Shown here: piece by piece, positions 8,617 through 63,809 of the stretch | Numbering within the stretch: position 1 is the first letter of the stretch | Layout of the letters: each line of letters starts with the position of its first letter | Assembly (NCBI GenBank): GCA_951406725.2 | Contig: OX597816.1 | Location: forward strand, 138,942,001-139,006,000 | DNA length: 64,000 nucleotides | Reading direction: 5' to 3' | DNA from: Octopus vulgaris | Lineage: Eukaryota | Notes under the pieces: generated by a model | What the model was told of the DNA's origin: nothing | Database searches by the model: none | Seen by the model: the letters and a program-made list of their open reading frames with translations, nothing else | Program-made: the position numbers and the translations under genes

Positions 8617-9837
8617 TGTGTGTTTGTGTGTGTGTGTAAAGAACATTCGCCGATTAGGCAAATTAATGTAACGATCCACAAGGGTGTCTCCTGCATGAAT
8701 AACATATAGTTAAGTGCAGGTTAGCAGCCATAAATAAGATTTTTCTAATTGAAATTGTAACGCTAATGAGATAAAAAGTCATCAGCGTTAATGAAAATTT
8801 ATTCAGAAAGTGTTTAATAGTAAGGTTGCCTGACATTTCCAACCAGACAAAAATTAAATTTAAAGGGAAATATACCAAGTGAAAGAGCGAGGGAGTATGT
8901 TTATATTTGATGAGTGCCTTATGACAATTTCACTCACATCTCGATTATATGAAACATTTTCATCTAAGCTTATTCTGCAGAATAGCTTAGAACACCCATG
9001 GATGGTGGCCCGCAATTAATTACATAATCTTGCAGAGAGTACGTTTGAGAATATTTCCAATGCCATTATTTTTAATTTTATTTTCACTGAACAATATGAT
9101 ATTCATACATAACCAAAAAGAAAACTATTCCTATTGAAAGTTCAGAAATTTTGGAAGCACCCAGTCGACTTTGTGTCGCTGAATTTGTCCGGAGTGATCG
9201 TTATAGATAGCAAAAGTTCAACATCACTCATCTCCCATCATCATCATTGTCGTTGTCGTCATCATCATCATCATCATCGTCGTCATGCCACTCTCTATTC
9301 CCCACTTTTTCACACAGTTTCCAATGCAACGCTTTTGCCACCTCATCGTGATACCACAACTGATATCGGTTTTAGGCAAGTCGACGGCATTCATTCTCAA
9401 TATCGACAATCATTTTTTACAAATCCATTATAAATTCACTTCAATGGATACATTTGATAACTTAACTTAACATTTCTAAGTTTGGCCCTCCAGTTTCTCG
9501 CCAAAGCTTGGTCTTGCGCTGCAAGTATGTTTCTTTAACTAGCCCCCAACTATGTTCTCCAGCAATTTCAGTTGTGGCCACATGCAATTGATTATATAGT
9601 CCCTTGTTGCATACTACTTCACTATATCCTTCATGTACTTCTCGTTTTGTTCTTTTCTAGTTTTCCTGCTTTCAATATGCCTTCATCTCTAACTACCACT
9701 ATCAAGGGTTTCACGTTTTGGGTTAGATATCTCAGTAAGTTCCCATGTTCAATATACACGCAGTCTTCCACACTTATCAGTCCCCTTCCTCCTATTCCTC
9801 TCTTCGTGTTTAGACGATCATTTTTGTTGTTATCATA

Positions 9838-9886
<49 letters not shown>

Positions 9887-10541
9887 TGTTGTTGTTGTTG
9901 TTCATCTCTGTAAAGTGCTGACTGAGCTATGAAACTATATACCGTTATGTGCAGTAGTTTGTATGATGATGGATTGTTGAACAGTATGAATTGAAGACGG
10001 CGATGTAAGATAATTCAAGCGGAGAAAATTGTCTTTGTACATCTGCAACAGAAACAAGCAGTAATCTGTCATATCAGCAATAATTTGATAGTTTACGGAA
10101 AGTATAACTGCATAGGTTTTTATTACTGTTTTTATGAAGTAGTACGGAGAAGAGTGGTGAGTGGCAGAATTAGTTGATTACTGAACTGACTTCTTGCTTT
10201 ATTTAGTTACATCATTCTACGTTCTGAGTTCAAATTCCCTGAGATCAACATCGTCATGTTTCATTCTGGTTGTGATAAATTAAGTAGAAGTAATTCACAG
10301 TCAATTAGGCTTTCAATGGTGTATTTGCTCTAAGTATGATACACAGATTACCATTTTAAACTAGTACTGATTCTACCGCATATAACGAATTTTTATTGTA
10401 ACATCAGTGATTTTTCAGTAACTGTTTTTCTATATCAGTAGCAGCGGATTTTGTCTCAGCATGCGATTCCCAGCAAATACTTGCTACTGAGAAAACTCAA
10501 AGAGATAGAAATGCGCATTTAGCCATGCTACCACCGTTGCT

Positions 10542-23871: not shown

Positions 23872-23908
<37 letters not shown>

Positions 23909-24133
23909 CTTTATTTAAAGCAGCAGAAAATTCAACAAAATCTGTTACTCTGAGTTTCTCGTTGCCGTTCATCAGACAGTTATTCTAGCAAAAACTGTCT
24001 GATGAACGGCAACGAGAAACTCAGAGTAACAGATTTTGTTGAATTTTCTGCTGCTTTAAATAAAGCATATTACTCTACCACTGGTATTTGAGTACTCTTT
24101 TTTCCACCTTGTTTCACATTTATGTGTTTACTC

Positions 24134-24136
<3 letters not shown>
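23909..24136 (+). mobile_element. Short HHR-bearing insert in (TA)n with perfect 73-bp inverted arms plus 3' tail
   Basis: 23909-23981 is the exact reverse complement of 23993-24065 (11-nt spacer); unique tail to ~24136; (TA)n on both sides. Confidence 0.85.
23995..24032 (+). ncRNA. Minimal type I hammerhead ribozyme (mirror copy on minus 23942-23979)
   Basis: ctgt-CTGATGA-a-cg(gcaa)cg-a-GAAA-ctcagag-TA-acag; canonical core, GUA site after 24028, self-complementary helix III. Confidence 0.8.
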
Positions 24137-24191
<55 letters not shown>

Positions 24192-25145
24192 AGAGTAAAA
24201 ACATTGATATTAATTAAATTAATATCAACTTAAACCAATAGCTTAGCATATTGAAAAAAATCTGAAGATTCAAAAAATTATATTACATATAAGAGGAATG
24301 ACCACTAGATGGACTCCTAATATGCTAAATGTAGTCCCTATACGGCCTGACCACTAAGAAAAATTGTTCTCAAGAAAATTCGGAAAACGCTAGAACGTAA
24401 AGCGAGCAAAACATATGAAAAGATACAAATATAATGATTAGTCACATACCAGATTTCATTGTTACCATTTACATTACGTAAATGTCTGCAGATCATCTGT
24501 GCGACCGTCATAGAAAATATAAATTGCAGAACTATATACGGAACGTCCTGACGAGAGAGAACATGCACACAGTTCTATCAATTATATATTTACCCGACAT
24601 TATATATTTACCTAATATTAGGCGTCCACCTAGTGGTCATTCCTATTATATTCATGTAATATAATTTTCTGAATCTTCAGATTTTTTTTCAATATGCTAG
24701 GCCACTGGTTTAAATTGATATTAATTTAATAAATATCAATTTTTTACCCTTATTATTTAAATTTAAATTACCATGTTCTCTAATCGGCAGGCTTCGATGC
24801 GGAAAATTATTTTCTTCAGAGTCATTTCCGGCTTCGGCGCGCCAAATCGAAGACATTTGAAATGTACCCCCAAATATAATTGATAGAACTGTACGCATGT
24901 TCTCTCTCGTCAGGACGTCTCGTATATAGTTCTACAATTTATATTTTCTATGACGGTCGCACTGATGATTTGCAGACATTTATGTAATGTAAATGGTAGC
25001 AATGAAACCTGGTATGTGACTAATTATTACATTTTGTATCTTTTCATTTGTCTTGCACGCTTTACGTTCTAGCCTTTGCCGAATTTTCTTGAGAACAATT
25101 TTTCTTAGTGGTCAGACAACATGGGGTCTACATTTAGCATATTAA
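24192..25145 (+). mobile_element. Retrozyme-like / PLE-derived non-autonomous element with A-B-A'-C-B' architecture
   Basis: ~24195-24330 is inverted at ~24606-24745 and ~24320-24585 is inverted at ~24872-25145; homologous to 55795-56733. Confidence 0.75.
24956..25020 (+). ncRNA. Type I hammerhead ribozyme (mutated inverted copy on minus 24441-24505)
   Basis: gtcgca-CTGATGA-t-ttgc..cattta/taaatg..gcaa-t-GAAA-cctgg-TA-tgtgac; 6-bp stem I, intact core, GUA site. Confidence 0.85.
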
Positions 25146-25322
25146 AGAGACTGATAGAATCCAGACTTTCAAAAACAGAAACAAAAATGAAAGTACCGTT
25201 TTTGAAAGTCTGGATTGTATCAGTTTCTTTTGCCAAACATCTAACTTACATCGATGTAAACTCACCGACACAAGTTGTCAAGCAGTAGGTGGGGAACAAA
25301 CACAGACACACATCAATACGCA

Positions 25323-25699: not shown

Positions 25700-26185
<486 letters not shown>

Positions 26186-31398: not shown

Positions 31399-31738
31399 AA
31401 GTCGTGGCCAAAAGTTTGGAACATAGGTCTGAAAATTAGAATTTTTATATTAAACGCTCAAAAGTCATATTCAATTTGCAATGTATTAATCTCTTGACCA
31501 AAAGTTTGAAACATAGGTCTGAAAATTAGAATTTTTATATTAAACGCTCAAAAGTCATATTCAATTTGCAATGTATTAATCTCTTGACCAAAAGTTTGGA
31601 ACATAGGTCTGAAAATTAAAGATTTGTTATATTAAATGCCCAAATATATACGTTGGATGTATTTGAATCGAATCGTACTTGAGTATAACAATTAAAAAAA
31701 TTTTTTTTTTAAATGTACCTAACTTTTGGCTACGACAG
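31399..31738. mobile_element. Tc1-type MITE with internal 90-bp tandem repeat, inserted in SINE A
   Basis: gtcgtggccaaaagtt left and aacttttggctacgacag-ta right; repeat units start at 31408, 31498 and 31588. Confidence 0.8.
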
Positions 31739-45830: not shown

Positions 45831-45906
45831 ATAAATATTAGGGAATGAATCCAAAATTACAGGGAAAAATCAGATTTAGGGTTAATCCAATTTTATAGTA
45901 AAATAT

Positions 45907-46228
45907 TATATAATATAATTCGAGACAAAACCACTATTTTAAAACCAAACAAGAAAAGACTTAATCAATACATAAAATTTTAATATAAATTAAATAAACC
46001 GCCACAACAATTGTTTCATGTCTGCTACCGACAATCTTCAGGTGGATTTTCGATCTTCTAATCAGTATCAAAATTTGATACTGATTAGAAGATCGAAAAT
46101 CCACCTGAAGATTGTCGGTAGCAGACATGAAACAATTGTTGTGGCGGTTTATTTAATTTATATTAAAATTTTATGTATTGATTAAGTCTTTTCTTGTTTG
46201 GTTTTAAAATAGTGGTTTTGTCTCGAAT

Positions 46229-46239
<11 letters not shown>
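45907..46239. repeat. Perfect palindrome, 166-bp arms centred on 46073, with unique tail 45826-45906
   Basis: Arms are reverse complements with a single unpaired central base; embedded in (TA)n. Confidence 0.92.
46101..46144 (+). ncRNA. Minimal type I hammerhead ribozyme (mirror copy on minus 46002-46045)
   Basis: ccac-CTGAAGA-t-tgtc(ggtagca)gaca-t-GAAA-caattg-TT-gtgg. Confidence 0.85.
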
Positions 46240-46280
<41 letters not shown>

Positions 46281-52908: not shown

Positions 52909-54709
52909 CTAAAATATAAATAGATAATTCTTAAGCTCTTCTATGTTTTAATTTTTCTCTCTAATTGTCGAATATCCGTGCCAAATATTTCAAAATTAAA
53001 TGATGCATAAATTTTGAGATATTATGTGTCATTCTTAGTCTACTGAATCTAAATCCTTCTACAATGATTCCAACAGAGATTTAGAACAAGTCAATAAATA
53101 TATTATTATTCATGTATTCTTTTACTTGTTTGGGACATTTGACTGCAGCCATGCTGAAGCATCGCCTTCAAGGGTTTTAGTCGAAGAAGCCGACCCCAGG
53201 ACTTATTTTTTGTAAGCATGGTACTTATTCTATCGGTCTTTTATGCTGTACCGCTAAGTTATGTGGACATAAACGCACCAACATCGGTTGTCAAGCGATA
53301 GTAGGGGTCAAACACAGACACAAAGTTATATATATATATACACGACGGACTTCTTTCAGTTTCTGTCTACCAAATACACTTACAAAGTTACAGTAGAAGA
53401 CGCCCAAGGTGCTACGCAGTGGGAATGAACCGGACCCATGTGGTTGGGAAGCAATTTCTTTATTGCCCACAAGGGGCTAAACACAGAAGGGACAAACAAG
53501 GACAGTCAAAGGGATTAAGTCGATTATATCGACCCCACTGCGTACCTGGTACTTAATTTATCAACCCCGAAAGGATGAAAGGCAAAGTCGACCTCGGCGG
53601 AATTTGAACTCAGAACGTAGCGGCGGACGAAATACCGCTAAGCATTTCCCCCGATGTGTTAACTTTTCTGCCAGCTCGCCACCTTACAGGTCTGGGCAGC
53701 AAGTTTTTTTACCACACAGCCACACCTGCGCCTGTATATATATAGATTTAATTATAAACTTTAAAATGGACCACCAGCATAACGTGGTAGACACAGAACA
53801 AGTCTCATATGTTTTTGTAGGAAAACTCAGCGATATTAATCTTTAGAAAGTTGATATTACATTTCGAGGCTTATACAAAATAGCACCAGTATTGGATTCG
53901 ACAGCTGATCCGGAACAAAACAATAAAATCAGAACTTTTGATAAATTTCATAGATAATGATTGCCCAACATATACCGCATGTCATAGATATAAGCTTAGA
54001 AATATAGCATTTGTGAGTAGTAAGATTAGATAGGGTAAACATTTTTTTAAAAAAATGCAAATTTTGAAATTATGCTTTTAGAATCCATCGCTTTGATAAT
54101 TGAGTATACTGAATTACATACATACGTACATACATACATGCATACACATACATACATATACATACATACATACATACATACATACATACATACATACATA
54201 CATACATACATACATACGTACATACATACATTACTTAAATACCAATATTAAGAAATTGGGCTTCTGAAAACCAGAAAGGAGAAGGCTGATTCGGAGACTA
54301 CAGAGCCAGGTCATCACTGGCACTGTAAAAGTCTGTAAAACTTTCGAGAAGTTTATCATTTAAATATATATGAGCATTTCTAGACATGATACTATAAGCA
54401 TGGTAATACATGCATAAAACAAAACATACAAACCTGCATATATACATACATACAAAAATACATTGTCGATGTTGAAATTCTCTATCGGCAAGAAATCTTG
54501 AAATAATTGAATAATGACATACTCTTTACTCTCTTTTACTTGTTTCAGTCATTTGACTGCGGCCATGCTGTAGTACCGCCTTTAGTCGAGCAACTCGACC
54601 CCAGGACTTATTCTATCGGTGTCTTTTGCCGGACCGCTAAGTTACGGGGACGTAAAAACTCCGGCATCGGTTCTCAAGCGGTATTGGGGAGACAAACACA
54701 GACACATAA

Positions 54710-55270: not shown

Positions 55271-55744
55271 GAGTAATCCCTCACCATATCGCGGTTCACC
55301 TATCGCGCAGTCAGTACATCACGGTTCACCTATTGCGCCCTCAGTACATCGCGGATTTTTCTGGTTAGTATACGTAAATTTATGTCGTGGACTCCTCAGT
55401 GTATCGAGGGTTTCTGCAGCCGATAGGTATTTAGATTTTTTAGATTTTAATTATTTCTGTGGTAAAATAAGCATTTTCACGCTTAAAAATTAATAAATTA
55501 ATAAATAAAAATACAGTACTGCACTGTATAACACATTAATAAGAATATATTAAAAGATAATATGTAGTGTACCGTAGATGAGTAAATAAAGAATCGCACA
55601 TACTGTATGTAAAACGAAACTCGGGTGGCGAATGTGTGGTGTTGCTTTGCATTTATAATAAAATAAATATATACAAATTATAAAAACAATAACAAAAAAT
55701 AAACAGGGGCAAACGTAACACCCGCGATAGTTGGGGGATTACTG
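55271..55744. mobile_element. pogo/Tigger-like MITE
   Basis: ta-gagtaatccctcaccatatcgcgg vs ccgcgatagttgggggattactg-ta; TA flanks. Confidence 0.75.
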
Positions 55745-55794
55745 TATACATATACATACATATACACACACACGCACACATACAACACACACAG

Positions 55795-55903
55795 GGTAGA
55801 AATTATTAAAAAATAACAATTTTTGCCAGTAGCCAGCATGCGTGAAAAACGTCCAAGGACTGCAAATTATATTCAAATATATATATAAATTATATATATA
55901 TAC

Positions 55904-55998
<95 letters not shown>

Positions 55999-55999
55999 C

Positions 56000-56091
<92 letters not shown>

Positions 56092-56733
56092 TCAAATTAT
56101 ATTCAGATAAGAGAGGAAAGCCACTGAGAGGTTTCCTTACATGCGGAAAATGGACGTCAAATTTTTTAATCACGGAAAATGATTTCTCATTTGGCGTCTA
56201 CTTTCAACATGTAAGGAAACCACTTAGTGGCTTTCCTCTTATCTTATATATTTGAATATAATTTTCAGTCCTTGGACATTTTTTGTACGCATGCTGGCCA
56301 CTGGTATTAATTGTTATTTTTTAATAATAATTTTTACTCTTAGTATTTTTAAATATTTTAGCTCTCGAGTCGGGTAATTCACTGCTAATTTATTCTAGCT
56401 TGGCGCGTTGGTTGAAGACATTTGAATTGAACTCATGATGTATAATGGTGGAACTGTATACGCACGTATGTCCTTTCACGGAGATGGAGTGTATTCGAGT
56501 TCTATTAATATGTGTCCCCAGCGGATTCCACTGAAGATCCACGGATAGTTGTTTCATTGTTAATGGTGTAACTTCGAAGTATGGAATTAACTGGTCGTTT
56601 TATATTTTTTCATAGTCTTGCACGAGTACATCCAATGCGTCGTTAAATGAGAACGCATTTTATCGTGGTTAGACGATTTGACATCTACTTTCAGCATGTA
56701 AGGAAACCACCACTTAGTGACTTTCCTCTTATA
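55795..56733 (+). mobile_element. Second copy of the retrozyme-like partial-tandem, 5'-inverted element
   Basis: Direct repeat at 56189 and 56676 (487-bp period); 55795-56195 (split by (TA)n) is the inverted copy across the monomer junction. Confidence 0.75.
56525..56587 (+). ncRNA. Type I hammerhead motif with one core substitution
   Basis: attcca-CTGAAGA-t-cca..tgg-t-GTAA(for GAAA)-cttcgaag-TA-tggaat. Confidence 0.7.
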
Positions 56734-56751
56734 CATACATACTTACATACA

Positions 56752-62671: not shown

Positions 62672-63055
62672 TTGTCTTTGCACAGCCTCTAACGCTGGAG
62701 ATGTACTACGGTGCCAGTTGTTCACCACCAGTGAACTAAGGTAACACCCCTTATTTTTCGAGCACCATCCGGAGTATTCAAGCGATTCTAAGCAGCGCTG
62801 TTTTCAGCAAGTGCCCCACTCTTATTGCAGCCCCTATTTGTTCCATGTACTTCTCAAGATTTTTACTCACTATTCCCAGGGCTCCGGCAATTATTGTTAC
62901 TGCTACCAACTTTTCAAGCGACCAAAACTGCTTAACTTCCCAAGTTAACCTGTCATATCTATCGACTTTTCTTTCTTCCTTATCGCATACCTTGTTGTCA
63001 GCTGGACATGCTATAATCTATGTTCCAGCATCGTTTCTTTTCCTTCTTAATTCCC
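62672..63055 (-). mobile_element. Second, divergent R4/Dong-clade 3' fragment
   Basis: IACPADNKVCDKEERKVDRYDRLTWEVKQFW..IIAGALGIVSKNLEKY..KTALL..ILRMVLEK*; flanked by (TAA)n. Confidence 0.82.

Positions 63056-63809
<754 letters not shown>

Follow-up and report, generated by a model that had tools for sequence, protein, structure and literature searches.

Retrozymes and Penelope-type elements

The described elements closest to the locus presented here are the non-LTR retrozymes. Circular RNA has been shown for those of coral, mussel and axolotl (PMC7229834; Cervera & de la Pena 2020). More recently, their distribution and a phylogeny from Xenopus were used to argue that retrozymes derive, as non-autonomous elements, from Penelope-type elements (PLEs); in the same work an active retrozyme has, by definition, two ribozymes in tandem, and eight of nine predicted Xenopus dimers showed no cleavage in vitro (bioRxiv 10.64898/2026.07.22.740005). 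The helper of retrozymes was left open in two reviews (PMC7761336 and PMC6765202), and one review points out that the retrozyme repeats lack a motif indicative of their helper.

PLE insertions have a characteristic layout, i.e., a partial tandem, an adjacent inverted and truncated copy, a tail at one end and a bias for microsatellites (PMC8557442; Craig et al. 2021). It was later shown that a PLE protein cuts both strands of AT-rich DNA in vitro, and that cDNA starts at two internal sites, which makes the PLE tail (PMC11167929; Frangieh et al. 2024). Algae have non-autonomous PLEs that carry pLTRs (PMC8557442), and a dimer model has been proposed for hammerheads that pair through helix III (PMC4209133). 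For the giant squid, the accessible text gives only a count of 235 Hammerhead_1 matches (PMC6962438). Our literature search, with subscription papers and Repbase outside its reach, returned no description in cephalopods of a family such as the one reported here, which may be catalogued in those sources as an unannotated repeat.

The window analysed in this work is a stretch of 64,000 nucleotides from Octopus vulgaris (contig OX597816.1, positions 138,942,001 to 139,006,000, forward strand), and all coordinates given below refer to it. It contains the element E2 (55795-56732) and a related element at 24.2 kb, E1 (24189-25144). We consider it probable that E2 is an old insertion of an element of approx. 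490 nt, without ORF and with a type I hammerhead fold, that moved as a non-autonomous, retrozyme-type passenger of the RT/GIY-YIG endonuclease of a PLE.

With non-LTR retrozymes (PMC7229834; Li, Clavereau & Pollet 2026) E2 shares the lack of an ORF, a GC content of 36%, a type I hammerhead and a short palindromic helix III, as well as dispersed monomer-like copies and a PLE as proposed helper; its unit also falls inside the range of 51-972 bp given in bioRxiv 10.64898/2026.07.22.740005. On the other hand, the units of E1 and E2 (487-524 nt) are longer than the 170-400 nt of PMC7229834, an internal loop and an inner hairpin lie in the 30-35 nt that separate the two halves of their ribozyme core, and a U·U occupies positions 10.1-11.1. 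Moreover, the E2 locus is a dispersed copy of approx. 1.1 units with one ribozyme and not a tandem of two, and the PLE marks of E1 and E2 (inverted arm, one-sided tail, TA flanks) are not among the retrozyme features described in the accessible text of these sources. With the canonical EN+ PLEs that carry pLTR hammerheads (PMC4209133, PMC8557442, PMC11167929) E2 shares the partial tandem, the inverted 5'-truncated copy, the tail at one end, the AT-rich or (TA)n sites and a hammerhead upstream of two 3' ends. It differs from them in having neither an RT nor a GIY-YIG ORF, in a tail of approx. 100 nt instead of 30-40, and in a ribozyme that lies within the unit, outside the 54-nt repeat, and has fuller helices than the minimal PLE motif. 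The Chlamys elements, e.g., MRC1, are likewise non-autonomous, pLTR-forming and moved by PLEs (PMC8557442; Craig et al. 2021); unlike E2 as known here, they are algal, mostly without canonical hammerheads, and share 3' sequence with a known helper. Judged from its DNA sequence, E2 would work like a non-LTR retrozyme and insert like a PLE.

Kinship and anatomy of the two elements

The original prediction had presented E2 as a distant relative of E1. This kinship is well supported: blastn over the whole unit of approx. 490 nt gives 341 identical columns out of 549 (62%, E 3e-28), and the local score of 217 contrasts with 35.7 ± 5.2 in shuffles, with no score as high in 500 dinucleotide shuffles. 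The homology spans the whole unit, beyond the blocks that had been named; taken one by one, the three segments that lie outside the ribozyme reach significance (0/500 shuffles as high), the ribozyme segment has a weak sequence signal (7/500), and 56340-56400 is the worst-aligned stretch. The named blocks are present, and within the window ccacYtagtgg occurs only at 24626 and 56220, and ggcgcg-N6,7-gaagacatttgaa, for which 100 shuffles gave 0 matches, is confined to 24836 and 56402. A metagenome scan with the shared 19-letter block returned 26 loci (best E 0.013, GC 0.50-0.70), with no relationship past the motif in any of them. The features of both elements are the following.

55795-55885, minus strand: inverted arm of E2, outer piece, reverse complement of the tail at 56243-56340 (82/98 columns identical)
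55877-56091, no strand: (TA)n array that interrupts the inverted arm shortly after the position of 3' end A (TRF period 2, 110 copies)
56087-56192, minus strand: inverted arm of E2, inner piece, reverse complement of approx. 56645-56732 plus approx. 20 nt (68/90 columns identical)
56189-56192, no strand: head-to-head junction of the arms, four letters common to both, read from the sequence
56189-56242, plus strand: 54-nt terminal direct repeat, first of its two copies, a pseudo-LTR-like partial tandem (57 columns, 87.7%)
56213-56234, plus strand: hairpin with ccacttagtgg, directly upstream of 3' end A (z -3.42, 2/200 shuffles)
56243-56340, plus strand: tail from 3' end A to 3' end B, with a 10-bp AU-rich hairpin (56308-56331) at its end
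56402-56426, plus strand: conserved block ggcgcg..gaagacatttgaa, only in E1 and E2 within the window
56517-56594, plus strand: type I hammerhead ribozyme fold, by descriptor, folding and structure model
56676-56732, plus strand: second copy of the terminal repeat, ending at 3' end A and followed by (TACA)n/(TA)n
24189-24587, minus strand: inverted arm of E1 with tail and ribozyme (248/274 and 127/154 columns identical to its own forward arm)
24615-25144, plus strand: forward arm of E1, unit of approx. 524 nt with an intact-core ribozyme (24950-25027); its right end abuts another repeat

The forward arm of E2 measures 544 nt, or 1.12 units, and consists of the 54-nt repeat, the tail, the body, one ribozyme and the repeat again. 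The predicted period of 487 bp was recovered as a direct repeat with a period of 487 nt, or 490 after a 3-nt duplication. The unit of 487 nt has a GC content of 0.357 and a longest stop-free frame of 69 codons; it holds no ORF, and in particular no single ORF with RT and GIY-YIG, therefore E2 is not an autonomous PLE. The inner inverted piece, which blastn places at 56192-56112 versus 56645-56729, is 5'-truncated, beginning 64 nt downstream of the predicted cut site, and carries no ribozyme. The outer piece stops at 3' end B (55795) and adjoins a (TG)n/(TA)n microsatellite. The inverted-junction layout that had been called the same in both elements is indeed alike; nevertheless, it differs in that the inverted arm of E2 begins downstream of the ribozyme, and hence lacks one, and is split by the (TA)n array of approx. 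215 nt. The arms of E2 are 76-84% alike, which implies either that the insertion is old or that the arms derive from different templates. Sequence change between E2 and E1 amounts to approx. 38%, with the fold kept, and E2 is likely an old, dead copy of a small repeat family without ORF.

Several other repeats were seen in the window, which is AT-rich (GC 0.30-0.41) and crowded with microsatellites (132 TRF rows). A repeat with a 33-bp-arm hairpin (25144-25300) cuts the right end of E1 and has weaker relatives at 54610, 53207 and 43438. Just to the left of E2, the stretch at approx. 55272-55745 resembles a MITE by eye, with what seem to be inverted repeats at its ends and a 30-bp tandem inside. 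A 90-bp tandem repeat with 2.6 copies and 95% matches occupies 31408-31644, and approx. 25700-25800 holds a SINE-like repeat that seems to be of a kind known from octopus genomes.

The hammerhead ribozyme

The E2 ribozyme contains the core CTGAAGA (56531-56537), GTAA (56568-56571), CTTCGAAG and TA (56580-56581). Helix I, whose end is open, pairs 56524-30 with 56582-88 (7 bp) and continues in a distal helix, 56518-21/56591-94; it reads GATTCCA/TGGAATT and includes the attcca/tggaat stem that had been noted before. A U·U precedes helix II (56539-41/56564-66, 3 bp), and an inner hairpin follows at 56544-61; domain II of both ribozymes includes an internal loop and an inner hairpin, and the halves of the core lie 30 nt (E2) and 35 nt (E1) apart. 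Helix III (56571-80) is a perfect palindrome of 10 nt whose pairing with a second copy has a computed energy of -12.5 kcal/mol, and the predicted cut falls after A56581 (U16-H17 = UA, 56580-81). The 10.1-11.1 position is a U·U, i.e., without a pair, in both elements; a stem II that starts with U10.1-U11.1 is known in natural hammerheads, where it is the best-tolerated mispair (PMC3088659). The C3UGANGA9 core is present in E2, and the G12AAA15 core is broken by a U at the A13 position; with this letter, the ribozyme of E2 itself is likely inactive. In E1, GAAA is present in both arms and the core of the inverted arm is altered to CAGAUGA (24493-24499, minus strand), which makes two of the three family ribozymes in the window core mutants.

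The fold is better conserved than the sequence. In the ten core-anchored pairs that were counted for the two lineages (seven in helix I and three in helix II after the U·U), 12 of the 20 letters differ between E1 and E2, all of them as six double changes, with no single or breaking change. Pairs were counted from the core because MAFFT misaligns the ribozymes. Under random substitution the ten pairs all survive in 83 or 382 of 500,000 trials, according to the transition bias, for a pair set that is partly post hoc, as helix II was ended at three pairs, the fourth being C·A in E2 and in the inverted arm of E1. In the distal helix, defined with both elements in view and lying within the covariance model match described below, all four pairs have changed. 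The exchange of cttcgaag for cctgg, which had also been read as covariation, does not hold as such; these letters are not alignable, and the feature common to both is that helix III is short and self-complementary.

A covariance model derived from the two arms of E1 alone retrieved 56518-56594 as its top non-training match (27.5 bits, E 1.4e-4; next match, 15.2 bits); with the same alignment stripped of its structure the E2 ribozyme scores 6.7 bits (E 0.54). A descriptor fixed before the other sites were examined found five perfect-core matches in the window (23975, 23999, 24962, 46041 and 46105), and with one core change allowed it adds E2 at 56531. In 40 block-shuffled windows the strict set gave a mean of 0.025 matches; with the E2-level thresholds, chosen after E2 was known, the mean was again 0.025, versus 2 in the window. 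All the hammerhead families of the window (23999, 24962, 46105 and 56531) have a U·U or A·A at 10.1-11.1, and none reaches the Rfam gathering score. E2 shares with the Hammerhead_1 type models of Rfam the core and the three-way junction by descriptor; an Rfam search returned no hammerhead match to it at the gathering score or up to E 10, and the perfect-core motifs at 23975/23999 and 24962 go undetected in these searches as well. The Rfam miRNA matches correspond to inverted-repeat junctions and are all far below gathering. The minimum-energy fold of E2 is not the hammerhead (-17.4 versus -13.3 kcal/mol; z 0.09 versus shuffles), and when the unit is folded as a circle E2 is no stabler than shuffles (z -0.6; E1, z -3.5). 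A viral contig scan with a ribozyme motif gave 0 matches. A bacterial promoter scan found three sites versus 2.0 expected, which is not meaningful here.

Copies of the family in sequencing runs

A search of sequencing runs found part of the unit in 20 of 24 rows, from 11 studies and five organism labels, with no RNA dataset among the rows listed. Four of the 24 runs, with four organism labels (X1, X4, X5 and X10), were compared as contigs over 56186-56745; at 80% likeness, 95, 81, 105 and 159 contigs were aligned, respectively. It had been asked whether the family consensus restores GAAA at 56568-56571, and it does: at 56569, where E2 has T, the letter is A in 14, 7, 14 and 10 contigs of X1, X4, X5 and X10. 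In summed depth, which is not taken as copy number, A accounts for 1091.8/1146.1 (X1), 70.9/70.9 (X4), 977.9/977.9 (X5) and 509.4/558.6 (X10). The non-A depth of X1 (54.3) equals that of one contig identical to the E2 locus, and in X10 it is 49.2 of 558.6. Since A is found across the contigs of the four runs, GAAA is the family state, with an intact core, and the U of E2 is likely a local mutation. At 56548, 56555 and 56559 the majority letter makes Watson-Crick pairs out of two wobbles and one mismatch of the inner hairpin, and the 40 variant rows listed, out of 268, all lie outside CUGANGA and the core-proximal helices I-III. The claim of a real ribozyme family that keeps its structure through sequence turnover is therefore upheld by the six double changes with 0 broken pairs, the structure-model test and the GAAA found elsewhere.

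These results also bear on the idea that the unit is a DNA-level repeat, i.e., a satellite remnant, a foldback or a template-switch product, whose hammerhead look is due to chance or is long-dead baggage. The core change of E2, the lack of a folding advantage over shuffles and the lack of an Rfam match would suit it, and it is extremely improbable given the intact core in other copies, the compensatory changes and the negligible chance rate.

Contigs from other loci bridge the tail and the ribozyme (X1 record 2, X4 19, X5 25), and others run from the ribozyme region through the repeat into the tail (X1 1, X4 16, X5 23); each set perhaps represents one orthologous locus. The bridging contigs indicate that the short closed unit is not peculiar to the E2 locus. 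At least one inversion joint was found in X10, among the 15 of 38 joints listed. Of 285 loose ends, the 24 listed include three at 56239-41 and five at 56321-37, some of which run into TA-rich repeats; those near 56240 may alternatively stem from a common 7-nt indel at that place. No contig with two tandem ribozymes is present among the 32 of 525 pieces listed, and short contigs collapse tandems. In X1, three contigs have other sequence (median 171 nt) before 56389, which could be longer variants or a lead to the helper element.

These three contigs would also fit a different origin, in which an autonomous PLE contributed the unit as its pLTR/UTR region. Deletion, perhaps once in each of the two lineages, would then have produced the short closed form, uncut read-through RNA would have served as its template only now and then, and the ribozyme would have been conserved in the parent element and not in the short unit. 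The poorly aligned stretch at 56340-56400 could hold the independent deletion joints; in addition, PLE pLTRs carry hammerheads (PMC4209133), and Xenopus retrozymes are related to pLTRs (bioRxiv 10.64898/2026.07.22.740005). However, E1, E2 and the contigs of other loci all run from tail to ribozyme without an ORF, and the geometry of helices I and II and the distal helix are fuller than the minimal PLE motif, so that we regard this origin as unlikely.

Pattern of insertion

The layout of E2 matches that of PLE insertions in its partial tandem, inverted truncated arm, one-sided tail and microsatellite flanks. The partial tandem that forms the pLTR is the 54-nt direct repeat with period 487, and an adjacent inverted and 5'-truncated copy is found in both E1 and E2. 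Both ends of E2 adjoin microsatellites, in a window that holds 132 TRF rows. The inverted arms of E1 and E2 end at the same homologous place, 3' end B, beside a microsatellite that in E1 is (TA)26. The tail of E2 is found on the inverted arm and is absent after 56732, which makes it a one-sided extension of approx. 100 nt.

Each 3' end sits just 3' of a hairpin; an AU-rich hairpin precedes end B in both E1 and E2. The ccacYtagtgg hairpin had been proposed as a second cis element. This is partly supported. In favour of it, the hairpin is larger than stated, lies directly before a 3' end, folds better than shuffles (z -3.4 and -2.6) and has 33 of 35 cells paired over five copies; against it, there is no compensatory change. 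We consider it a candidate initiation or recognition signal.

Another source of such a locus would be a SINE-like RNA mobilized by an ordinary LINE, twin priming having produced the inversion. The window seemingly has fragments of non-LTR elements, as the frames at 9631-10014 (minus strand) and 62740-63114 seem to resemble parts of non-LTR retrotransposon proteins. Both arms here have the same 3' region and outward 3' ends, an arrangement that twin priming is not known to give. SINE-like hammerhead elements are known in Schistosoma (PMC6765202); nevertheless, neither a poly(A) tail nor a target-site duplication is visible at E2 and its forward arm exceeds one unit, and this source seems very unlikely to us.

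Two further head-to-head hammerhead pairs, unrelated in sequence to E1/E2 and each located between (TA)n arrays, were observed in the window. The near-perfect pair of small hammerheads at 23904-24136 (cores at 23975, minus, and 23999, plus) has A·A at 10.1-11.1 and an extension of approx. 70 nt on the right arm only. The second pair (45838-46244; cores at 46041, minus, and 46105, plus) has U·U at 10.1-11.1, a palindromic helix III and an extension of approx. 70 nt on the left arm only; its arms are identical over approx. 160 nt and it looks young. From these two unrelated pairs, long one-sided tails seem to be usual in this genome. The CCACTGGT shared by the tail of E2 and that of the 23.9-kb pair was discarded, because its score was reached in 28 of 500 shuffles and the window contains the 8-mer six times.

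Attempts were made to find the helper. Twelve motif probes gave no relevant match in the PLE supplement of Craig et al., where line breaks can hide matches, and by eye the Octopus Naiad consensus ends in the displayed parts of that supplement have no likeness to E2.

A possible route of mobilization

Mobilization of E2 as a PLE passenger could proceed as follows. A source locus with tandem units would be transcribed and the transcript cut by two ribozymes, which probably pair into a dimer by means of the palindromic helix III; ligation of the unit RNA would then yield a circle. A PLE protein would nick AT-rich or (TA)n DNA, and cDNA would start inside the RNA at A (151 nt) or B (approx. 246 nt) downstream of the cut, at either site just 3' of a hairpin. 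Each target end would receive one cDNA, and the two would finally be joined head to head.

The forward arm of E2 and the inverted arm of E1 both cross the cut site uncut. Given that the arm of E2 exceeds one unit through this site, the template was not a cut linear monomer, and must have been a circle or an uncut multimer. We favour the circle, with the balance roughly even, because it explains the conservation of the ribozyme; a fold kept through 38% divergence needs a use for cleavage. The circle step is weakened by the finding that ribozyme cleavage was not required for insertion by the one PLE assayed in vitro (PMC11167929). The length of the tail (approx. 100 nt versus 30-40) also counts against the reading of E2 as a PLE insertion.

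Relevance of the E2 locus

The class of elements to which E2 belongs is already known, and the value of this locus is the structural link that it provides between retrozyme-type units and PLE insertion. The helper of animal retrozymes and the role of hammerheads in PLEs are open questions according to PMC7229834, the bioRxiv preprint, PMC8557442 and PMC7761336. Hammerhead counts in genomes of this kind are likely low, since the form found in E1 and E2 is missed by Rfam and by descriptors with short spacers of 7-17 nt (PMC8557442). A hammerhead unit without ORF that has a PLE insertion signature, two defined 3' ends and candidate hairpin signals also offers a small substrate for an in vitro PLE assay.

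More tentatively, and with doubt prevailing, these copies might belong to a family of circular RNAs of approx. 500 nt with an undescribed hammerhead architecture (i.e., a structured loop 2, a U·U junction and a 10-nt palindromic helix III, missed by standard models), and might record two internal, hairpin-adjacent start sites of the PLE RT. If true, the two hairpins would be trans-acting recognition signals, and the family would be direct structural proof of PLE enzymes copying retrozyme circles.
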